A stretch of 44,492 nucleotides of DNA from a virus, in the IMG/VR virus record IMGVR_UViG_3300045996_001114, positions 1-44,492 of that record; one strand, 5' to 3'. Below are positions 2,864-44,492 of the stretch, piece by piece. Made by a program: the position numbers and the translations under genes. The notes under the pieces were generated by a model, which was not told the DNA's origin, searched no databases, and worked only from the letters and a program-made list of their open reading frames with translations. The stretch's first letter is position 1; the number at the start of each line of letters is the position of its first letter.

Positions 2864-3625
2864 TTAGGCTGCGTCGATGAAGAGGTCGGATTGGCGCTGA
2901 GCGTCCTCGATCCGGCGAACCGCGATCTCGAAGTAGCGCACCTCGCGCTCGATCCCGATGAACTCGCGGCCCATCTGGACCGCTGCGACACCAGTGGTGC
3001 CCACGCCCATGAATGGGTCGATAATCCTCCGGTCACTGCTCGCTTCGATTGCGCGCGCGGGCAGCGCGAGCGGAAAGCTGGCGGGGTGATCAGCGTCCGA
3101 CACAGGGGCGATGCGCCACACATCCCCGAGCATCGAAGCCGCCTTGTCACGCAGCGCCCAGTCGGGCTTCGCGTAGAGTAGAATCCATTCGCACATGGGA
3201 GCGAAGGCACCGGCCATGGCGTTGAAACCGCTCGCCCGATCCCAGATGATGACTTGCCGAAGTGGCAGTTCGGCGAAGAAAGGGAGCCGGACTTCCCGTT
3301 TCACCACGCGCGGCTTGTGGTTGTAGAAAATCGCTCCCGTGCAGATGCGCCAGCACTGTTCCAACGTGTCGCGCTGCCATCCGCAGTATTCCGGGTACGG
3401 CAGGTTGTCGGCATAGTCGCCGTAGCCATCACGAAGCTTGCGCTGGCCCCACTTGCTGCCGGCGTGCCCGACGCGCAGGCCGCCCTTGTCTTCCATGCCT
3501 TCGCCCAGATTGTACGGCGGCGAAGTGAAGCAGAGGTCGGCGCTACCATCAGGCAGTGTCGGCAAAATCTCGCGGCAATCGCCCAGATACAGCGTCGCCC
3601 GCCCGATGTGCTCCACGCGCGTCAT
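2864..3625 (-). CDS. DNA methyltransferase (beta-class N6-adenine/N4-cytosine)
   Basis: SPPY (motif IV) near the N-terminus and DPFMGVGTTG (motif I) near the C-terminus. No adjacent restriction gene. Confidence 0.85.
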   Translation of the reverse strand: MTRVEHIGRATLYLGDCREILPTLPDGSADLCFTSPPYNLGEGMEDKGGLRVGHAGSKWGQRKLRDGYGDYADNLPYPEYCGWQRDTLEQCWRICTGAIFYNHKPRVVKREVRLPFFAELPLRQVIIWDRASGFNAMAGAFAPMCEWILLYAKPDWALRDKAASMLGDVWRIAPVSDADHPASFPLALPARAIEASSDRRIIDPFMGVGTTGVAAVQMGREFIGIEREVRYFEIAVRRIEDAQRQSDLFIDAA

Positions 3626-4631: not shown

Positions 4632-5207
4632 ATGACAGATTCGGCGTTCGACAAGGATCGGATTATCGCGGCCATGAAGGCTCGCGGCGTCAATCAGACC
4701 GGCATGGCGAAGGTCATGGGCCTGCCGTCGCAGTCGGCGTTCTCGAATATCCTAAAGGACAAACGCAGGGTTACCGCCGAGGAAGCCAAGCGCGCTTACC
4801 AATTCTTAGGAATCAAGGGGGAGCCTTCGATTCAATGGGTTCCGGTGATTGGGATAACCAATGCCGGCCATTGGAGGGAGGCGATTCAAATGCCGCTCGG
4901 TAGTTTACCCGTCCGGCCAGGCAGCGTGAGCGAGGACGCCTTCGCGGTGGAAGTCGTCGGCGACAGCATGGACAAGCTGATCCCGGACGGTGGGCACATA
5001 GTTATCGATCCGCGCCAGAAAGAGCTGCGGGACGGCAAATCCTACCTCATCCAGAACGACCAGGGCGAGACCACGGTAAAGGCGTATTTCCGCAATCCTG
5101 CTCGCTTCGAGCCCGTGTCCGAAAACGACGAGCACACTGGGTGGCTGGTATCCGATCGCGACTTCGTCGTGCTCGGGCGCGTGGTTATGAAAGTCGAGCC
5201 CCTCTAA
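4632..5207 (+). CDS. CI/LexA-like repressor (XRE HTH + S24 peptidase)
   Basis: ATG at 4632. HTH GVNQTGMAKVMGLPSQSAFSNILK. Ala-Gly site in TNAGHW. Ser motif VVGDSMDK and Lys in TTVKAYF, typical of RecA-stimulated self-cleaving repressors. Confidence 0.85.
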   Translation: MTDSAFDKDRIIAAMKARGVNQTGMAKVMGLPSQSAFSNILKDKRRVTAEEAKRAYQFLGIKGEPSIQWVPVIGITNAGHWREAIQMPLGSLPVRPGSVSEDAFAVEVVGDSMDKLIPDGGHIVIDPRQKELRDGKSYLIQNDQGETTVKAYFRNPARFEPVSENDEHTGWLVSDRDFVVLGRVVMKVEPL

Positions 5208-13573: not shown

Positions 13574-14176
13574 GTGAGTGATACCCAAGATAAGCCGTTG
13601 GGCGCTGAAGCCTACCCCCTTCATTGGCCGGCGGGTCAGCCGCGCACCAAGCGCCCGGAAACGAGCCGCTTCGATGTGTCGTTAGCGCGAGCCCGCGACG
13701 CATTGATGGAAGAGCTTCGATTGATGGGCGCGCGCTACCCCGTGCTGTCCACCAACATCGAGCTACGCCGCGATGGGCTTCCCTATGCCAACACGCGCGA
13801 GCCGGAGGATAAGGGTGTCGCTGTGTATTTCCAGTGGAAGGGGAAGCAGATGACGTTCGCCTGCGACCGATGGGATCGGGTGCGCGACAACGTTCGAGCG
13901 ATCGGCAAAACCATAGAGGCGATCCGCGGCATTTCGCGTTGGGGTGCGTCCGACATGATGGAACGCGCGTTCTCGGCCTTCGAGGCTTTGCCCCCGCCCG
14001 GCGGCACCGTCACAGTGTCCTGCTGGGATGTGCTAGGGCTCCAGCCCAACGCGAGCCGCAGCGACGTGACGGCTGCCTACCGCCGGCAAGCGCGCGCCGC
14101 CCATCCCGACCAAGGCGGAACCCGGGAAGAATGGGACCGGCTACAGGCTGCTTACGAACAGGCGCTGGCAGCATGA
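13574..14176 (+). CDS. J-domain-containing protein
   Basis: The C-terminus CWDVLGLQPNASRSDVTAAYRRQARAAHPDQGGTREEWDRLQAAYEQA carries the HPD tripeptide of DnaJ-type J domains. The N-terminal ~130 aa are unassigned. Confidence 0.7.
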   Translation: MSDTQDKPLGAEAYPLHWPAGQPRTKRPETSRFDVSLARARDALMEELRLMGARYPVLSTNIELRRDGLPYANTREPEDKGVAVYFQWKGKQMTFACDRWDRVRDNVRAIGKTIEAIRGISRWGASDMMERAFSAFEALPPPGGTVTVSCWDVLGLQPNASRSDVTAAYRRQARAAHPDQGGTREEWDRLQAAYEQALAA

Positions 14177-15210: not shown

Positions 15211-15306
15211 GGAACTCGGTGGGATTCGAACCCACGGCGATCACGGTTTTCCGGTCCCGTAAACGCTCCCCGCGCGAGGCGCCTTCGTCCACTCAGCCAC
15301 AAGACC
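15211..15306 (-). tRNA. tRNA-like element / probable degenerate class II tRNA (anticodon arm not foldable)
   Basis: Minus strand features: acceptor GGTCTTG/CGAGTTC (6 of 7 pairs), Ser-type D arm GCTGAGTGGACGAAGGC, and a canonical T arm GTGGG-TTCGAAT-CCCAC. The 45-nt middle gives no 5-bp/7-nt anticodon stem-loop. No encoded CCA. Confidence 0.35.
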
Positions 15307-15355: not shown

Positions 15356-15363
15356 GCCCCAGA
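15356..15363 (+). repeat. target-site duplication, left copy (GCCCCAGA)
   Basis: Abuts the left terminal repeat. An identical octamer abuts the right terminal repeat at 20920-20927. Confidence 0.75.
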
Positions 15364-15383
15364 GGTAGTGTCTCAGTTTCAAA
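15364..15383 (+). repeat. left terminal inverted repeat (IRL)
   Basis: GGTAGTGTCTCAGTTTCAAA. Confidence 0.8.
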
Positions 15384-15494
15384 TTTACCCGATCCCTCTC
15401 AGAGGGCGCGCACCGCGTCCAACGCATAATCTCGATTTGACGCCAGCCGCGCGAATCACCATGTTATGCTTAGCGCAAAGCATGGAGGCGAAGC

Positions 15495-15776
15495 GTGTTC
15501 GTGGTTCGAATCATTGCAGATGCCGAGCGGGTGGACTTCAAGGCGTTCGACCAACTCCCCGGCGCCCGCCAGCGGCTCGAGCAGTATCGGCAATACACCG
15601 ACGACGGGGAGCTAGACAGCATCGCCATCTTTGAAGTGCCCGGCGCTACCGACCCGAGAGCCGCAGTCGAAGCGGTGAAAGCTGGCAACAGCGCATTGCT
15701 GCGCTTGGTCGATTTCCACGAGTCCCGAGATATTCGGATCGAACGCCTTGCCCAGAAACTGGAGTTCAAGCTCTGA
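15495..15776 (+). CDS. hypothetical protein (93 aa), IS passenger
   Basis: GTG at 15495 after GGAGG. Ordinary composition. The stop overlaps the next start (TGATG). Confidence 0.55.
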   Translation: MFVVRIIADAERVDFKAFDQLPGARQRLEQYRQYTDDGELDSIAIFEVPGATDPRAAVEAVKAGNSALLRLVDFHESRDIRIERLAQKLEFKL

Positions 15777-16003
15777 TGCCTAAAGGTCCACGCGGAGAGA
15801 AACGACCAGCCGACGCCATTGGGCGCGCGGTGCTGATCGGACGAATCGCTACCGGCGAGGTTGAGGACGAGCGCGAGGCGCTTTCCAGTGCTGCCGCCGA
15901 GCTTGGCCGGAAGGGCGGCAAGAAGCGCGCCGAGAACATGACGCCGGAGCGCCGCCGCGAGATTGCTCAAGCGGCGGCAGCAAAGCGTTGGAGCAAGGCC
16001 TAG
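15776..16003 (+). CDS. small basic protein (75 aa) with KGG-like C-terminal motif, IS passenger
   Basis: MPKGPRGEKRPADAIGRAV...LGRKGGKKRAENMTPERRREIAQAAAAKRW. I recall this pattern as a widespread small alphaproteobacterial protein of unknown function. Confidence 0.6.
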   Translation: MPKGPRGEKRPADAIGRAVLIGRIATGEVEDEREALSSAAAELGRKGGKKRAENMTPERRREIAQAAAAKRWSKA

Positions 16004-17190
16004 CCGTCCTTCCCGAAAATCCGGATCACGTTGGATTCGCCTGACCTGTATTCCTCTTTCAAGGTCGGTTCCGCTCGCAGCTGGGCGGTCTCTGACAGGG
16101 TGCCTGGCTCAAGATCTGCCAACTCTTCGATATCGGACGGGGGGAACGGTAGGGCCTTGAGTATCGCCGATGGCGATTGCACGCCTTCCTCGATCAGCAT
16201 CTCGAAGCTGCGCCGGATCAGGTGAGGCTCTTCCTTGAGCATCTTGCCATCAAGCGGCTCGCCCGTGCGCCAGCCGCGCCGATTGTAATTGATCCAGAGC
16301 CGCCGATATTCGTCGTCATCGATGATATCTAGCGAACGACAACGCATTATCATCGCGCCTACCGACGCGCCCCAACGCTCTTTGAGCGTCAGAAAGCCAT
16401 CAAGGGACGGAGCATAAAGCTCCGCCGAAAACTCGAGTTCGGGCAACAGCATCGCCGACGCGATCTGATCGGCCTGTTTCTCTACGTTCTTGTAATAGGC
16501 GCGATCATTCAGCCGCCGCTGCGGAATGTTGGCGTGGGCAACGATATGGACCAATTCGTGAAGAACATCGAAGCGCTGCCGCGCAGCGCTGGCCTTGTCT
16601 CTCGATAGCATCACGAAGGGAACGCCAAAGCGATCCGACCACTGGGAAAACGCATCCAGCTTGTCGGCGCGAACGTGAATGCGGGACACAAGGATGCCGT
16701 TGGTTTCGAGATACTCGATCGTGTCAGGCATCGGTCCCGGACGGATGCCCCAATGCTCCCGAATCGTGGCTGCCGTACGCTCAACAAAATCGGAGTCAGC
16801 GAAGTCGTCGTCGGGCAATTCGATCTGGGGGATGTTGAGCGCCGGGAGGTCAAAATAGGTGGCGATGTAGTCCACCATTTCTTTCATCCATTCCAGCCGC
16901 ACGTGGGCACGGTCCCGCGCGATGGGAGGGGCCGAAAGACGCGCCCGCCAAAAAATGGGGCGCTCATCCGCAGCTGGGATGGGGCGCAAAAAGTAGTCGT
17001 GAGGAAACTTCAGCTGCGACGCTAGCTTGTGCGCCACGTCAAGCTTGGGACTCTGATGACCGTTTTCGTATTTCGAGATCGATTGCACACTCACGCCAAC
17101 TAGGTCCGCCAGATCGGTCGCACTGATCCCCCGTGCGCGCCGAGCCTCGGTCAACCGAGCACCAACAAAGCCTTGCATCACTACACTCAT
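16000..17190 (-). CDS. XRE-family HTH fused to ImmA/IrrE (M78) zinc metallopeptidase with extra C-terminal domain
   Basis: N-terminal HTH LTEARRARGISATDLADLVGVSVQSISKYENG. HEXXH site FDVLHELVHIVAH. About 110 aa of unassigned C-terminus. The ATG at 17190 overlaps the upstream stop (ATGA). Confidence 0.85.
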   Translation of the reverse strand: MSVVMQGFVGARLTEARRARGISATDLADLVGVSVQSISKYENGHQSPKLDVAHKLASQLKFPHDYFLRPIPAADERPIFWRARLSAPPIARDRAHVRLEWMKEMVDYIATYFDLPALNIPQIELPDDDFADSDFVERTAATIREHWGIRPGPMPDTIEYLETNGILVSRIHVRADKLDAFSQWSDRFGVPFVMLSRDKASAARQRFDVLHELVHIVAHANIPQRRLNDRAYYKNVEKQADQIASAMLLPELEFSAELYAPSLDGFLTLKERWGASVGAMIMRCRSLDIIDDDEYRRLWINYNRRGWRTGEPLDGKMLKEEPHLIRRSFEMLIEEGVQSPSAILKALPFPPSDIEELADLEPGTLSETAQLRAEPTLKEEYRSGESNVIRIFGKDG

Positions 17191-17861
17191 TTGGTCTCGC
17201 CTGTTCCGGTTCCTTCGTCGTCCTTGACCTTCCAGCTGGGCGAACGGCGCGGTTCGACCTTGCGCGGTGCTGCCGGGAATGCCTCAAGAATTTCCGCAAC
17301 CGTTAGTTCGACTGCCCAAGCCTTGCAGTCGGCAGATGGCAGGCAGAACTGGATCGAACCCAGCCGCTGCTCTTCGGGCTTGAAGCGCCGGCCAATGGGG
17401 TTGTGCGCTACCAACCCGTACAACGAGCGCATCTGGAATGCGTCGGGCGGTTCATCACCCAAGTCGAGGCGGGGAAGCCCCACTGTGTTGGCAAGGCGTT
17501 CGCGGAAGCGGGCGGGCTGGGGGAGCGCCCCGATCTCCTGCACATAGGATTGCGTCATGGAGACGCCGCCCTTGAACACGTAGGCGTGGCACCGGTTGTT
17601 CTGGACAATCGCGTTCATGGAAGAGGACAGGCCGTGTTCGTCGGCCAGATCGACCAGGAGTTTCTCCATGCGGAAGTGGCGGCGCTGGAGCAGATCGTCG
17701 ATCTTCTGGTCGGGGTGCACCTTCGTGTCGGCCTTCACTTCCTCGAAGGTGTCCGCGTAGATGATTTGGGAGCGCGCGCGCAGGTCAGTCCAGAAATTCG
17801 CGGGGGTATCCCGGACGATGACGTCGAGAGCAGATGTTCGGAGCTGTTGGTAGGCGTCCAT
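17187..17861 (-). CDS. hypothetical protein (224 aa), first gene of the operon with the HTH-ImmA fusion
   Basis: Ordinary composition with no motif I recognise. GAGGGG lies 12 nt upstream of the ATG. Translationally coupled to the downstream peptidase gene. Confidence 0.65.
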   Translation of the reverse strand: MDAYQQLRTSALDVIVRDTPANFWTDLRARSQIIYADTFEEVKADTKVHPDQKIDDLLQRRHFRMEKLLVDLADEHGLSSSMNAIVQNNRCHAYVFKGGVSMTQSYVQEIGALPQPARFRERLANTVGLPRLDLGDEPPDAFQMRSLYGLVAHNPIGRRFKPEEQRLGSIQFCLPSADCKAWAVELTVAEILEAFPAAPRKVEPRRSPSWKVKDDEGTGTGETK

Positions 17862-17947
17862 GCGATTCTAACCCCTCAACGATTTTCCCGCGTTGCACAT
17901 TTATGCTCATAGCTTAAAGAGTTTCGTCCCGCAAGCGCTGATTGTGC

Positions 17948-17976
17948 TTGACCCTAAGCATAAAAGTTCATATCAA
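17948..17976 (+). promoter_or_regulatory. putative transposase promoter TTGACC-17-TATCAA
   Basis: Near-consensus hexamers with a 17-nt spacer. The ATGs at 17978 and 17984 lie 1-7 nt after the -10, so the transcript may be leaderless. Confidence 0.4.
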
Positions 17977-17977
17977 A

Positions 17978-18865
17978 ATGCGCATGAACAAGCTGCCTCT
18001 CGCCAAGCGCACCCAAATCCTCGCCATGCTGTGCGAGGGTTCGTCCATGCGGTCGATCAGCCGCATCGCGGATGTGTCGATCAACACGGTTGCCAAGCTG
18101 CTGGTCGAGGCCGGGGAAGCCTGCCTTGCCATCCATGACGAGACGGTGCGCAACGTGAAGGCGAGCCGTATCCAGTGCGATGAGATTTGGTCGTTCTGCT
18201 ACGCCAAGCAAAAGAACGTCGCGACCGCGAAGGATGCGCCGGAAGGCGCTGGCGACGTGTGGACCTGGACCGCTCTGGACGCCGACACGAAGCTTATGGT
18301 CGGCTACTTCGTCGGCGACCGCTCAGCTGAGAGTGCGATGATCCTGATGGATGATCTGCAAGCACGCCTCGCCAATCGCGTCCAGCTCACCACTGACGGC
18401 TATCGCCCTTACCTTGAGGCGGTCGAGGGCGCGTTCGGCAATGACGTGGACTATGCGCAGCTCGTGAAGCTTTACAGCGAGCATGGGGGGCTAACCCCGG
18501 AACGTCGCTACAGCCCCGCCCATTGCACCGGCGCCCTCAAGCGCCGGGTGGCGGGGCGTCCGGACCCCAAGCATGTCAGCACCTCGCACGTCGAGCGCAT
18601 GAACCTGTCAATCCGGATGCAGAACCGCCGCTTTACCCGCCTGACGAACGCCTTCTCGAAGAAGCTCGACAACCACATTCACGCGCTGGCGCTCTACTTT
18701 TGCTTCTACAACTTCTGCCGCATCCACAAATCGTTGCGCATAACTCCCGCGATGGCAGCTGGCATCACTGACCGCCTCTGGACGTTGGACGACATTGTTG
18801 CGAAGATCGACGCGCTCGCCCCGGCTCCCAAGCCGCGAGGCCCCTACAAGAAGCACGCGGCGTAA
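17978..18865 (+). CDS. IS1-family-like single-ORF DDE transposase
   Basis: N-terminal HTH RTQILAMLCEGSSMRSISRIADVSINTVAKLL. QCDEIWSF..., TTDGYRPY..., and ERMNLSIRMQNRRFTRLTNAFSKKLDNH...FYNFCRIHKSL, typical of IS1/ISMhu11-type transposases. Confidence 0.75.
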   Translation: MRMNKLPLAKRTQILAMLCEGSSMRSISRIADVSINTVAKLLVEAGEACLAIHDETVRNVKASRIQCDEIWSFCYAKQKNVATAKDAPEGAGDVWTWTALDADTKLMVGYFVGDRSAESAMILMDDLQARLANRVQLTTDGYRPYLEAVEGAFGNDVDYAQLVKLYSEHGGLTPERRYSPAHCTGALKRRVAGRPDPKHVSTSHVERMNLSIRMQNRRFTRLTNAFSKKLDNHIHALALYFCFYNFCRIHKSLRITPAMAAGITDRLWTLDDIVAKIDALAPAPKPRGPYKKHAA

Positions 18866-18924
18866 GTTCTATTTCCGTTCCGCGCAGGCTTCCTATATAG
18901 GGTCAGCGAAAGGAGGAACATCGC

Positions 18925-19443
18925 ATGGCAGACTGGTCGCCAGCCATCGCTAACGAGTTCATCCGGAGGGCGGCAGCTGAAGGCAAGAGCCTGACGCAAA
19001 TGCAGCTCCAGAAACTCGTCTATATCGCGCACGGTTGGAATCTCGCGATCAACGGCGAGCCACTGACTTATGACAAGCCGGAGGCTTGGGATTATGGCCC
19101 CGTTTACAAAGAGCTTAGGCGCGCCCTGCGCGCTTATGGCCGCGAGGCTGTAGGTCGCGAAATTCGGTATTGCGAATTCGTGCCGGGCTCGTTTCATGAT
19201 GAGCCGGAAGATGCAGCGGTGGCCTCCCTCTCAGACGCTGAGCGGGCGCTGATCGACCGTGTCTATCAAGACTACGGTAAGTTCCATGCCTTCCAGCTGT
19301 CAGCCCTGACACATGCCGATGGCACTCCGTGGACGCGGGTTTATGCCAAGGGTGCGGGCAAGTTCGACGACATTCCTGCCGATATGATTAGGGATCATTT
19401 TGTCGACCTCGCCAGAACCCGCCGGGCCGCCGCTAACGCTTGA
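18925..19443 (+). CDS. Panacea-domain (DUF4065, SocA/GepA-like) antitoxin-type protein
   Basis: LTQMQLQKLVYIAHGWNLAINGEPLTYDKPEAWDYGPVYKELRRAL matches the DUF4065 core. Strong RBS AAGGAGGAA. Confidence 0.75.
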   Translation: MADWSPAIANEFIRRAAAEGKSLTQMQLQKLVYIAHGWNLAINGEPLTYDKPEAWDYGPVYKELRRALRAYGREAVGREIRYCEFVPGSFHDEPEDAAVASLSDAERALIDRVYQDYGKFHAFQLSALTHADGTPWTRVYAKGAGKFDDIPADMIRDHFVDLARTRRAAANA

Positions 19444-19807
19444 CGACATCGACACCGGCGTTGCCGTTGTCGAGGACGTCAGTGCCCCCGATCCACGCGA
19501 CTTGCTGGAGCGGGCAGCTGCCGAACGTGCTCGGCTGGAGAACAAGCTTGCGCGCTCCCGCATCAAGAACGTCAAAGCCGACCGGAAGATGCGCAAGACT
19601 TACGCGGGGCGCATCCTGCTATATCTGGAAGCCTATTCGGTAGTCGTTGCCCTAATGGTAATCGCTGCAGGATTCGGGCTTTGGGGATTCACGCTTCCGG
19701 TCGAAATCCTCGCCTCACTTGTCGGCAGCACGGCGATTGCAGCCATCGGCCTAGTGGGTTTTATCGCACGCGGGTTGTTCAAACCGCCGCCAGATAACCC
19801 GCAATAA
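19400..19807 (+). CDS. two-TM small membrane protein (candidate PanT-type toxin)
   Basis: C-terminal RILLYLEAYSVVVALMVIAAGFGLWGF and ILASLVGSTAIAAIGLVGFIARGLF helices. The start is uncertain: TTG 19400, TTG 19502 or ATG 19589. Confidence 0.55.
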   Translation: MSTSPEPAGPPLTLDDIDTGVAVVEDVSAPDPRDLLERAAAERARLENKLARSRIKNVKADRKMRKTYAGRILLYLEAYSVVVALMVIAAGFGLWGFTLPVEILASLVGSTAIAAIGLVGFIARGLFKPPPDNPQ

Positions 19808-19860
19808 TCGACCTTCCCGCTTACCTGGCTCAGCTGGTGGGCGGCCTACAAGAAGCGGCC

Positions 19861-20106
19861 CTAAGCTACAGAATGGCGATTGACGATCAGGTCAAAGAGG
19901 TCGCCGGCAGCCTCGAAAGACGGGGCCTTTGCCAAGATATCGAGGGTTTCAAACATCCCGGACTTGCGAGAGCGCATTACGAAATAACCGTTCCCACCGC
20001 CAAGTGTGTCCTGCTCGAAATGTTCTTCGTATGTTTCTGGCGAAATTGGTGATACGTAGAGCGTGGTCTCGGAATCGATTGCAGCCCTCAGGATGACATC
20101 GTCCAT
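19861..20106 (-). CDS. hypothetical protein (81 aa), IS passenger
   Basis: Acidic, non-repetitive sequence. Its ATG (20106-20104) overlaps the ATG of the divergent 248-aa gene. Confidence 0.5.
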   Translation of the reverse strand: MDDVILRAAIDSETTLYVSPISPETYEEHFEQDTLGGGNGYFVMRSRKSGMFETLDILAKAPSFEAAGDLFDLIVNRHSVA

Positions 20107-20851
20107 GTCAGAAACCCCGAACTATCAGTTCCACCGCAAACCCCGTTTCTCTGCCAATCACGTGGCTGAGTATCTCACCACACAAACAGCGACCCAGCGC
20201 GAGGCTGTGATCCGGAGGGCGAAATTCCCTCGTAAGGTATCCCTCATCGCGTACAGTCAGGCATTACCCGCAATCGGTAAATTTCTATCCACCAACTCCG
20301 GCGACGTGTCGTATTTTGACGACGTCCTGGCGCGCCTTGCGGCCAAGGAACGCCGCGAGCAAGGATATAACCGCGACGAGGCAAAGCGCTGCCAAGCAGC
20401 AATCAATGCATTCATCGACACCTTTCGGGCGTCCTCGCTGCGGAAATGCACGTTTGGCTTAGGGCCGCAGGACGTGGCGTTTCCCATTTCAGGCGTGAGG
20501 ATCAACGTCCGGCTGGACGCCCCGATTCTGGAGCAGACTACGGACGGCCAAGCCTTCTCAGGCGGGTGCGTGTTGATCATGGCCAGCACCGACGATGGGC
20601 GCAAGAACATCGAGGAGCGCAAGAAGCATGTGGCAGCCCTCGTGCACTGGGGGCTGGAGATGACTTCATCCCAAATCGAACCGCATCCGCGGCTTTGCAT
20701 GTCGTTCGACCCGTTCGGGCGGGACATTGTGAGGGCGCCGACGGCAATCGACCGTTTGCGGCGGTCCATCACATCATCGTGCCACGAGGTGGCATCGCGG
20801 TGGGATGATATCGAACCACCATCCGGGTACGACGGGCCGCCTTGGCATTGA
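20105..20851 (+). CDS. hypothetical protein (248 aa), IS passenger
   Basis: ATG at 20105 (MSETPNYQFHRKPRF...). Ordinary composition. Contains D...E-x-K-like residues (VRLDAPILEQ, NIEERKKH), but no secure family call. Confidence 0.6.
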   Translation: MSETPNYQFHRKPRFSANHVAEYLTTQTATQREAVIRRAKFPRKVSLIAYSQALPAIGKFLSTNSGDVSYFDDVLARLAAKERREQGYNRDEAKRCQAAINAFIDTFRASSLRKCTFGLGPQDVAFPISGVRINVRLDAPILEQTTDGQAFSGGCVLIMASTDDGRKNIEERKKHVAALVHWGLEMTSSQIEPHPRLCMSFDPFGRDIVRAPTAIDRLRRSITSSCHEVASRWDDIEPPSGYDGPPWH

Positions 20852-20872
20852 GCCATAATCGCTAAGTCCGAT

Positions 20873-20902
20873 TAGTCCGGCTCGGCTGGCGCGGACTATT
20901 TT
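20873..20902 (+). terminator. rho-independent terminator candidate at the IS right end
   Basis: 7-bp stem TAGTCCG / CGGACTA (20873-20879 / 20892-20898) with a 12-nt loop, followed by TTTT. Confidence 0.45.
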
Positions 20903-20919
20903 CAAAGTGAGACACTACC
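20900..20919 (-). repeat. right terminal inverted repeat (IRR)
   Basis: The reverse complement reads GGTAGTGTCTCACTTTGAAA. It contains the present stop codon of the o-spanin gene. Confidence 0.8.
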
Positions 20920-21238
20920 GCCCCAGAAACCCCCGCCGCGACCGCTTGACGGCCTCGGCGTCGCGAGCCTCGCAGCGCTGCAACAATTCCTTCGCATCGC
21001 GGTAGCGCGCGTCCCCCTTTTCGACCTGTGCGGCCTCGGCAGTTCCGAACCGTATCCACTCCTTGAGCTGGTCGAGCGGGTCAGCAGCTTGAGCGGGCGG
21101 AGGGGCGTGGCCTACGCCTTCATCCCAACTCGACGGCAGAAGGCTCGAGCAAGCGCTACTGGCGGCAAAGATCGGGGGAGATCTGACACAGCCGCTCGCG
21201 GCCAGCAGCGTCGGCACCAGCAGCGTCAGGCGCTTCAT
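20915..21238 (-). CDS. o-spanin (outer-membrane lipoprotein)
   Basis: MKRLTLLVPTLLAASGC is a signal peptide with a lipobox-like Cys. The start is embedded in the 3' part of the i-spanin gene (overlapped architecture). Confidence 0.7.
   Translation of the reverse strand: MKRLTLLVPTLLAASGCVRSPPIFAASSACSSLLPSSWDEGVGHAPPPAQAADPLDQLKEWIRFGTAEAAQVEKGDARYRDAKELLQRCEARDAEAVKRSRRGFLGR
20920..20927 (+). repeat. target-site duplication, right copy (GCCCCAGA)
   Basis: Identical to 15356-15363 and immediately outside IRR. Confidence 0.75.
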
Positions 21239-44001: not shown

Positions 44002-44492
44002 GCTGCCCGCCCGTGATTGGGGTGAAAGCCGAAACGAACCTCGGCTGCCTTGCGCGCCGCAATCGCGTCGTCCTTCTCCAAAAAATTGCCCAAGTAGCGG
44101 CGTCGACCTCCAACCTTGATGTAGGCTGTCCACCGCTTGTCAGACTTGCTCCACGCGACCCCAATATGTCCGCTCGTGTTATTCGCCGGCAGGGGCATGT
44201 TCCGGCTGTTCTCGACTTTGGTCACCTCTCTCAGGTTTGCGATGCGATTGTCAGCCTTGTCGCCATTGATGTGGTCGATCTCGCCCTTGGGCCATGCTCC
44301 AGTGTGTAAAGCCCAAGCGACCCGGTGCGCGTAGTACTCGCGCCCTTGGAAACAGCCCCTGCGATAACCGATCTTACAGCGGGTGCCGAAGGCTCGGCTT
44401 CCCAACCGATCCCGCTGGAATGCCCGCTGCTGGTCCTCAGCAGAGATCATATGGGGTGTGAAGTATTCGAGCGGAGGCACAGCAGCCCAAGT
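43998..44492 (-). CDS. HNH-AP2 endonuclease (C-terminal 164 codons; N-terminus continues at 238..128 on the circle)
   Basis: HRVAWALHTGAWPKGEIDHINGDKADNRIANLREVT is the HNH_3 motif. GVAWSKSDKRWTAYIKVGGRRRYLGNFLEKDDAIAARKAAE is the AP2 domain. The frame is open to the window end. Confidence 0.85.
   Translation of the reverse strand, partial: TWAAVPPLEYFTPHMISAEDQQRAFQRDRLGSRAFGTRCKIGYRRGCFQGREYYAHRVAWALHTGAWPKGEIDHINGDKADNRIANLREVTKVENSRNMPLPANNTSGHIGVAWSKSDKRWTAYIKVGGRRRYLGNFLEKDDAIAARKAAEVRFGFHPNHGRAA
44366..44492 (+). repeat. Terminal overlap copy 2 (identical to 1..127)
   Basis: Same comparison as copy 1. 127 nt is a common assembler k-mer length. Confidence 0.95.

Follow-up and report, generated by a model that had tools for sequence, protein, structure and literature searches.

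The 44,492-nucleotide stretch of viral DNA analysed here (IMG/VR virus record IMGVR_UViG_3300045996_001114, positions 1 to 44,492, hereafter the window) carries two co-oriented genes on its minus strand, rmrT (17187..17861) and rmrA (16000..17190). The rmrT open reading frame (ORF) encodes a predicted toxin of 224 residues, and rmrA encodes a predicted antitoxin of 396 residues, in which an XRE-type helix-turn-helix (HTH) is fused to an M78 (ImmA/IrrE-type) zinc peptidase. The TGA stop codon of rmrT and the ATG start codon of rmrA share the tetranucleotide ATGA at 17187-17190, and the two genes form a translationally coupled operon. Neither ORF is a chance occurrence: homologues of the two are found with E-values down to 1e-147 and 1e-250. 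We propose that the pair is a type II toxin-antitoxin (TA) system of the RosmerTA family, that it is a passenger of an IS1-family transposon inside a temperate phage, and that it probably serves in abortive-infection defence; we estimate the probability of this reading at about 85%. A first-pass annotation, made from the letters of the DNA, had described both ORFs with their overlap, the HTH and M78 parts of the longer protein with the motif HELVH, and an extra C-terminal part, all of which we find as described. It had missed that the architecture is already named and experimentally validated as the RosmerTA (RmrT/RmrA) family and had been predicted in 2009, and the novelty of the pair was therefore overestimated.

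All 14 PADLOC profiles for RmrA match the 396-residue protein, with E-values from 1e-119 to 1e-35. The best of them, PDLC03948 (E=3.8e-119), covers RmrA residues 1-389 with a profile of 397 positions. The family phrog_2439, which PHROGs labels 'transcriptional regulator', matches with E=2e-97, and the NCBIfam model NF052239 (spr1629-family) scores 193.8 bits over residues 8-364. Pfam places HTH_3 at residues 15-67 (E=9e-15, with additional matches to HTH_31 and HTH_19) and Peptidase_M78 (PF06114) at residues 164-284 (E=1e-16). On the minus strand of the window, the XRE-type HTH DNA-binding domain (residues 10-68, with matches in Pfam and Foldseek) is encoded at 16987..17163, the M78 peptidase core at 16339..16701, the HELVH motif (residues 211-215, read from the sequence) at 16546-16560, and a C-terminal extension (residues 285-396) at 16003..16338. 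The third zinc ligand is E237. Residues H211, E212, H215, and E237 do not vary among 56 aligned RmrA homologues, and in a set of 116 their conservation is at least 98%. Since the HExxH motif and this glutamate are invariant, the RmrA peptidase is presumably active.

The AlphaFold2 model of RmrA (predicted local distance difference test score, pLDDT, 88.5; predicted template modelling score, pTM, 0.85) contains an HTH of four or five helices, the peptidase core, a helical extension, and a tail. Within the extension, residues 285-360 are modelled as confident helices (pLDDT 88-96 up to residue 360), and the tail of residues 361-396 has pLDDT values of 49-74, is conserved, and is probably flexible in view of the model. 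Invariant residues in the extension are Y302, R304, R305, W307, E311, D314, E320, P322, L347, P348, and G363. The region of residues ~285-396 has no match in Pfam, and no separate fold from the Protein Data Bank (PDB) matches it among the top 50 Foldseek matches of RmrA. Because the PADLOC RmrA profiles and the NCBIfam spr1629-family profile span this region, the extension is, as judged from these profiles, part of the family-wide architecture of RmrA. It may serve to bind the toxin or act as a degron.

Foldseek comparisons of the whole RmrA model agree with the likeness to ImmA, IrrE, and CapP that had been recognised earlier. The best matches are CapP (7t5t, E=8e-5) and then IrrE/PprI (8sln, 3dti, and 3dte), including an entry of PprI bound to single-stranded DNA (ssDNA). 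Next in the list are Mycobacterium tuberculosis 'transcriptional regulator' entries (6cyy and others), which we take to be PrpR. The HTH resembles those of C.BclI (controller proteins), the N-terminal domain of CapH, DdrO, and SinR, with root-mean-square deviations of 1-2 Å for most HTH-only targets, and also that of ICEBs1 ImmR.

RmrT of the window is predicted to be a soluble alpha/beta protein of ~25 kDa, and it belongs to no characterised family. It had been reported as lacking any recognisable motif. This holds for Pfam, NCBIfam, and PHROGs, in which we found no credible match, but not for PADLOC, in which two RmrT profiles match: PDLC03934 (E=7.8e-16, residues 12-192 aligned with positions 6-187 of 212) and PDLC03937 (E=5e-11). 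Because the best RmrT and RmrA models stand at matching number offsets (03934/03948 and 03937/03951), the PADLOC models for the two proteins appear to have been built from paired clusters. A search of a 5.8-billion-protein collection returned 74 RmrT homologues, all unnamed and without a Pfam domain, and those with an organism name come mostly from Alphaproteobacteria. In an exhaustive profile search, the family comprises 194 clusters (50% identity), with lengths of 204-253 residues for nearly all of its full-length members. By tblastn, RmrT has no match in 50,697 phage records and one remote match in plasmids. Across 110 family representatives, the conserved residues are F23, Y35, R61, G98, R120, H153, P175, and W182.

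To survey RmrT loci, one genome per species was scanned, and 23 loci were returned (individual loci and viral contigs carry L numbers below). In all 23, an RmrA homologue lies directly downstream of the RmrT homologue and starts at the RmrT stop or no more than a few bases away from it. The first-pass annotation had allowed that homologues might never be linked to HTH-peptidase genes, and this possibility is decisively contradicted by the survey. The 4-nt overlap of the two genes is kept in L004, L011, L014, and L037 and is absent in L003 and L015. The pairing is also found on the viral contig L037. A remote RmrT member on an Agrobacterium plasmid (22% identity, hhalign probability 98.4%) is followed by a 401-residue XRE-family protein, in surroundings that contain AAA-ATPase, HEPN, and helicase genes. 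In L019 and L023, rmrT is split over two reading frames. Identities to the window proteins in the 23 loci are 37-70% for RmrT and 58-83% for RmrA, so that RmrA is the more conserved partner. In TA pairs, the antitoxin is usually the less conserved one. The higher conservation of RmrA would fit a constant sensor-antidote that is combined with exchangeable toxins. In 13 of the 23 loci, the same module is present with its promoter and lacks both the transposase and orf75, a backbone gene of the transposon described below. Because these loci keep rmrTA and its promoter free of the transposon, we conclude that the module is autonomous and was captured by the transposon.

The promoter and 5' leader of rmrTA (17862..17934, minus strand) were identified by comparison of loci and not by a consensus scanner. 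On the minus strand they comprise a -35 box TTGCGG (17934-17929), the spacer element AAACTCTTTAAG (17924-17913), a -10 box TATGAG (17911-17906), the leader motif TGTGC (17899-17895), and a ribosome-binding site (RBS) GAGGGG (17877-17872). Across loci, the arrangement reads TTGAC, a 17-nt spacer with AAACTCTTTAAG, a -10 box starting with TAT, TGTGC, CAGGAAAA, and the RBS, and the combination of TTGAC, 17-nt spacer, and TAT is present in most loci. In an alignment of 19 rmrT upstream regions, the columns CTTTA, TGC, and GG.AA are invariant. This conserved promoter region may act as an operator. The promoter and terminator scanner reported a single terminator, which lies inside rmrA and is implausible.

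Several characterised systems share the architecture of the window pair. RosmerTA defends Escherichia coli, and an rmrA deletion was not obtainable (Millman et al. 2022). Like RosmerTA of E. coli OLC-716, the pair in the window is a two-gene operon with the toxin gene first, it is located on a mobile element, and its antitoxin of about 395 residues combines an XRE HTH with an ImmA-like zinc peptidase; unlike that system, it is carried by an IS1-type transposon that lies within a phage genome. RmrA-type antitoxins are also found in RipA/RipB (Spr1630/Spr1629) of Streptococcus pneumoniae and in a Rosmer-type module of an E. coli E101 prophage. In both systems, a small upstream partner of unfamiliar fold is toxic and the antitoxin is essential. 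RipA is neutralised in trans and acts on the DnaN sliding clamp, ripB is deletable only in the absence of ripA, and ClpX is required. The E101 module, which is prophage-carried as the window pair is phage-carried, renders clpP essential. Transposon sequencing (Tn-seq) of a homologous system likewise found rmrA to be essential. The present data do not indicate that the window toxin shares the DnaN target of RipA.

A parallel in its setting is the validated, phage-borne Rosmer system RmrT(D5)/RmrA(D25) of Gordonia phage Kita, which has a protease-type antitoxin and an orphan toxin, as in the window, and defends against specific coliphages (Ernits et al. 2023). The C-terminus of the Kita toxin localises to the membrane, which this toxin depolarises, whereas the RmrT model of the window consists of N-terminal helices and a beta-sheet core; by inspection only, with no transmembrane predictor run, no hydrophobic helix is evident in its sequence. 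The same study placed the ImmA-protease antitoxin at a node that pairs with many unrelated toxins, and Xre-COG2856 fusions with swapped toxins had earlier been predicted on phages and plasmids (Makarova et al. 2009). The pairs ImmR/ImmA (ICEBs1), DdrO/IrrE (Deinococcus), and CapH/CapP (of the anti-phage system CBASS) contain the same two domain types as RmrA. In RmrA, however, the domains are fused in one polypeptide with a conserved C-terminal extension, and the constant partner is a toxin-like gene, with no conserved regulated operon. By analogy, these pairs are likely to be a model for the RmrA peptidase as a signal-triggered switch, and cleavage of a separate repressor, as in ImmR/ImmA-type pairs, is not implied for the fused protein.

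A number of observations weigh against the RosmerTA assignment or its functional reading. The window toxin, whose family is mainly from Alphaproteobacteria, has no detectable similarity to the verified 239-residue RmrT of E. coli OLC-716 (hhalign probability 0.2%), and it is unrelated to the toxins that adjoin RmrA in a Hoeflea plasmid and in viral contig L061. Its toxicity is assumed from gene position and profile alone, and the PADLOC RmrT profiles derive from genomic association and not from assay. With 194 bits, RmrA falls short of the cut-off of the NCBIfam spr1629-family antitoxin model (335 bits), and by this measure it is a relative of the spr1629 (RipB) family and not an equivalog or orthologue. 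In the literature consulted on Rosmer systems, we found no established neutralisation mechanism for any RmrA and no established substrate of the peptidase. At the promoter, the -35 box TTGCGG of the window is weaker than the TTGAC of most loci, and a consensus promoter scanner called no promoter for rmrTA. In L021, a split rmrA lies beside an apparently intact rmrT. An antitoxin that is essential would not be expected to be disrupted in this way, barring an error in the assembly of a metagenome-derived genome; this split and those of rmrT in L019 and L023 represent either module decay or assembly errors in metagenome-assembled genomes. We also note that no single toxic mechanism is transferable to the window RmrT, because the known actions of other Rosmer toxins differ, with membrane depolarisation in one case and an effect on the DnaN clamp in another.

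On the RosmerTA reading, a working scheme can be drawn up for the module. As in homologous Rosmer systems, RmrT would inhibit growth, RmrA would neutralise it, also in trans, and rmrA would be essential in the presence of rmrT. Host ClpX (as in S. pneumoniae) or ClpP (as in E. coli E101) may help to restrain the toxin, and the operon may protect against some phages. By analogy with ImmA/ImmR, IrrE/DdrO, and CapP/CapH, the HTH of RmrA could repress the rmrTA promoter, and the peptidase could be a switch of one of two kinds: it might keep the level of RmrT low, or a phage-derived or DNA-damage signal might lead to inactivation of the repressor or antitoxin function. RmrT that is freed would arrest the cell before the invading phage completes its cycle, and the lysogen would gain the exclusion of other phages. 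In addition, rmrTA may be an addiction module for the transposon and the phage.

The module was expected to be on a mobile element, and it is. Its direct carrier, however, is not the phage itself but an IS1-family transposon that lies within the phage. The transposon (15364..20919, 5,556 bp) is delimited by terminal inverted repeats of about 21 bp and an 8-bp target duplication. The left inverted repeat is GGTAGTGTCTCAGTTTCAAAT (15364-15384). The right one (20899-20919) is the reverse complement of TTTTCAAAGTGAGACACTACC and an imperfect complement of the left one, and the two repeats are identical at 18 of 21 positions. The target duplication GCCCCAGA is present at 15356-15363 and 20920-20927. 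The GC content is 59.3% in the transposon versus 65.3% in the rest of the window, and the interval of ~16-21 kb has 58-59%. The ends were traced from conserved sequence at the transposase stop; a search confined to the surroundings of the transposase gene found no terminal inverted repeats. The joined flanks, which represent the empty site, have no match among phage records, and in megablast comparisons with phages and plasmids the locus matched a transposase fragment only.

The genes within the transposon are, in order, orf93, orf75, rmrA, rmrT, the transposase gene, a PanA antitoxin gene with that of a 135-residue partner, an 81-residue ORF, and orf262. The putative IS1-family DDE transposase gene (17978..18865, plus strand) is divergent from rmrT, and its promoter (TTGACC at 17948-17953 and TATCAA at 17971-17976, plus strand) has its -35 box 13 nt away from that of rmrT. 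The transposase scores 25.9 bits with Pfam DDE_Tnp_IS1 (cut-off 24.1; no single stretch passes alone), is below the cut-off for Pfam HTH_38, and reaches 71 bits against a cut-off of 100 for NCBIfam transpos_IS1. Its RefSeq homologues, with 61-65% identity, are named 'IS1 family transposase'. The transposase gene adjoins rmrT in 10 of the 23 genomic loci, and we rejected the idea of a random insertion sequence (IS) beside rmrT, as the same gene lies upstream of rmrT in these 10 loci. The backbone gene orf93 (15495-15776, plus strand) forms an operon with orf75 (15776-16003, plus strand), which encodes 75 residues and is convergent with rmrA, with the two stop codons overlapping as CTAG. The presence of orf75 follows that of the transposase: it is found in 10 of 10 transposase-bearing loci and is absent from 13 of 13 transposase-less ones. 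It has more than 3,000 homologues, many with 85-93% identity and some named 'RNA-binding protein'.

A near-palindrome, ATGCTTAGCGCAAAGCAT, lies at 15466-15483, just upstream of orf93 and at the promoter of orf93/orf75. The near-palindrome ATGCTT-N6-AAGCAT is also found at 17944-17961, where it overlaps the -35 box of the transposase. Almost all loci that bear the transposase keep it at the two positions, and in L003 a 28-nt stretch is 100% identical. These palindromes may be a shared operator. They had been considered as the element ends and were rejected as such, since the true inverted repeats and target duplications lie farther out.

Downstream of the transposase, the PanA-type antitoxin gene (18925-19443, plus strand) encodes a SocA/Panacea domain (Pfam SocA_Panacea, E=1e-20; NCBIfam SocA_antitoxin, 94 bits, below the cut-off). 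The gene of the 135-residue PanA partner (19400-19807, plus strand) overlaps it and has a weak match to Phage_holin_3_6 (E=0.0017, below the cut-off). PHROG matches are found for the region of these two genes (18925..19807). The two appear, from their sequences, to form a second, TA-like cargo module of the transposon. A predicted ORF of 81 residues is at 19861-20106 on the minus strand. The cargo gene orf262 (20063..20851, plus strand; 262 residues) adjoins the right inverted repeat and has no match in Pfam, PADLOC, NCBIfam, or PHROGs. Weak homologues of it (22-23% identity) lie near inverted repeats in two viral loci, in L029, at the end of the element proximal to the right repeat, and in L067, in which one inverted repeat was found.

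The transposon belongs to a larger set of elements. Its 21-nt inverted repeat is present in 89 IMG/VR viral-contig stretches, and in all the DNA that was fetched, we delimited 32 elements of 1.37-5.56 kb, of which 27, including that of the window, have identical 8-bp flanks. The elements come from the loci L003, L004, L009, L011, L014, L015, L022, L023, L025, and L026 and from the range L029-L112; in L014, the target duplication read by eye is 9 bp. The shared layout is inverted repeat, orf75, variable cargo, transposase, and inverted repeat, with extra cargo past the transposase in some elements. RmrA-like genes are found in 17 of the 32 delimited elements, in either orientation and with differing toxins. 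In the subset picked by the inverted repeat alone, which is not biased toward Rosmer systems, an RmrA-like gene is present in about 6 of 20 distinct elements. Other cargo genes match RmrT profiles of other families, PD-Lambda-2_B, HEC-09, a type II methyltransferase, Panacea, AbiEii-like and STAND ATPases, NYN, and an SDH-type protease. Two plasmids carry the same element frame with different cargo. In L040, L072, L086, L089, L098, L100, and L102, the same inverted repeats occur as pairs ~375-900 bp apart, which enclose only a transposase fragment in some cases and no detectable transposase remnant in others. These short pairs look like non-autonomous derivatives of the IS, similar to miniature inverted-repeat transposable elements.

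Elements of the IS1 family end in GGnnnTG and generate duplications of 8-9 bp. Consistent with this family, the transposon has a DDE transposase annotated as IS1, termini that start with GGTAGTG, and an 8-bp target duplication. It differs from classic IS1 in that these elements (1.37-5.56 kb) are much larger and carry the extra backbone gene orf75 at the end opposite the transposase, with a variable cargo slot between both. No account of this element family turned up in the literature that could be searched, and searches there for passenger genes of IS1-family elements gave nothing specific. The nearest precedent is that of TA pairs as integral parts of Tn3-family transposons (PMC7157771), in which a passenger TA module likewise lies between the inverted repeats.

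The genome that hosts the transposon is that of a temperate phage. Because nucleotides 1-127 are identical to 44366-44492, the window is a circularly closed, complete phage genome of ~44.4 kb. It encodes a terminase, a portal, a major head protein, an endolysin, and an integrase, and the terminase shares 67-69% identity with its counterparts in Brucella phages. The S24 CI repressor of the phage, which the first-pass annotation had pointed out, is confirmed at 4632-5207 on the plus strand (Peptidase_S24, E=2e-17); its S24 motif reads GDSMDK, and the pattern GxSMxP did not match. Other phage genes encode an N6/N4 DNA methyltransferase (2864-3625), a 200-residue protein with a C-terminal DnaJ (J) domain (phrog_9210, 13574-14176), and a protein with a DnaA C-terminal HTH domain (1264-1662). 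Just left of the transposon insertion, ARAGORN reports a 96-nt tRNA-Pro(ggg) at 15211-15306 on the minus strand. An Rfam scan of the window returned nothing at gathering thresholds, including no tRNA at this position. The status of this tRNA is doubtful, and it could be a remnant of an attachment (att) site or an odd phage tRNA.

The location of rmrTA in the transposon allows an alternative in which the pair is chiefly an addiction or stabilisation module of the IS1-family transposon and its phage, and in which RmrA may couple the TA pair to transposase expression. The module lies inside the inverted repeats and between two backbone genes, the -35 boxes of rmrT and the transposase diverge at a distance of 13 nt, more than half of the delimited elements (17 of 32) have RmrA-like cargo, and the Tn3 transposons mentioned above offer a precedent. 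However, the 13 loci with rmrTA and its promoter but neither transposase nor orf75 argue for a module independent of the transposon, the cargo of the same slot elsewhere consists of defence-type genes beyond TA pairs, and cloned Rosmer systems without a transposon defend against phage. We therefore regard stabilisation as the chief role of the pair as unlikely, while noting that addiction and defence are not mutually exclusive.

A further alternative concerns the toxin itself. The AlphaFold2 model of RmrT (pLDDT 75.5, pTM 0.72) has three long N-terminal helices followed by the beta-sheet core, with the predicted order of helix, three strands, helix, and strands. This order could fit a nuclease toxin of the PD-(D/E)xK type that degrades DNA or RNA on release, and this fold is over-represented among the top Foldseek matches in each of two independent libraries (EcoRV 1bua, Hjc 1ob8/1gef, tRNA-splicing endonuclease, herpesvirus UL24, and RecB/RecE-like phage nucleases). 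None of these matches is significant, however. The structural check proposed for the 224-residue protein in the first-pass annotation thus gave no placement: in the PDB and the viral library BFVD, nothing was found with E<0.01, the best match has E=0.035, and the TM-scores normalised to the RmrT query are 0.3 or lower. Moreover, no D...(D/E)xK motif is conserved in the 110 family representatives, and a profile search of PDB sequences returned a single chance-level match (E=0.29). We consider the nuclease assignment improbable, more so than a chiefly stabilising role.

That the 396-residue protein is instead a fused, damage-responsive regulator of the ImmR/ImmA or CapH/CapP type, acting on the transposase, PanAT, or phage genes with the 224-residue protein as co-regulator or sensor, is very improbable: the structural nearness of its peptidase domain to CapP and IrrE/PprI (with the ssDNA-bound PprI entry), the likeness of its HTH to CapH, DdrO, and ICEBs1 ImmR, the PHROGs label, and the more complex regulatory circuit proposed for Xre-COG2856 fusions (Makarova et al. 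2009) all fit such a regulator, but the 224-residue family is the sole constant neighbour across the 23 loci, the plasmid, and the viral contig while the flanks vary, the genetics of three homologous systems make the small partner toxic and the fusion its essential antidote, and the phage has its own S24 CI repressor. The earlier preference for a TA-like or sensor-effector module over a phage regulator is thus upheld by the RmrT and RmrA profiles, the pairing in 23 of 23 loci, and the essential, trans-acting antitoxins of the homologues.

A wider reading of the RosmerTA module is that rmrTA is an interchangeable cassette of undescribed IS1-type cargo transposons, which would shuttle TA and anti-phage modules among phages, plasmids, and chromosomes of Alphaproteobacteria. 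By acting at the two divergent promoters, RmrA would couple toxin control to the transposase, and RmrT would have a new toxic mechanism. We put this forward tentatively, as a possibility to which we give slightly less than even odds.

As a Rosmer system, the pair is little new in kind, and annotation of the DefenseFinder or PADLOC type would flag it already. The RmrT family, with its 194 clusters strictly tied to RmrA, is a clean candidate for the questions of how Rosmer toxins act and which substrate the peptidase cuts. Of greater novelty is the IS1-type cargo transposon with which rmrTA entered the phage genome. Found in a complete phage genome and equipped with a swappable cargo slot, it represents a concrete route for the movement of defence and TA genes among phages, plasmids, and chromosomes.

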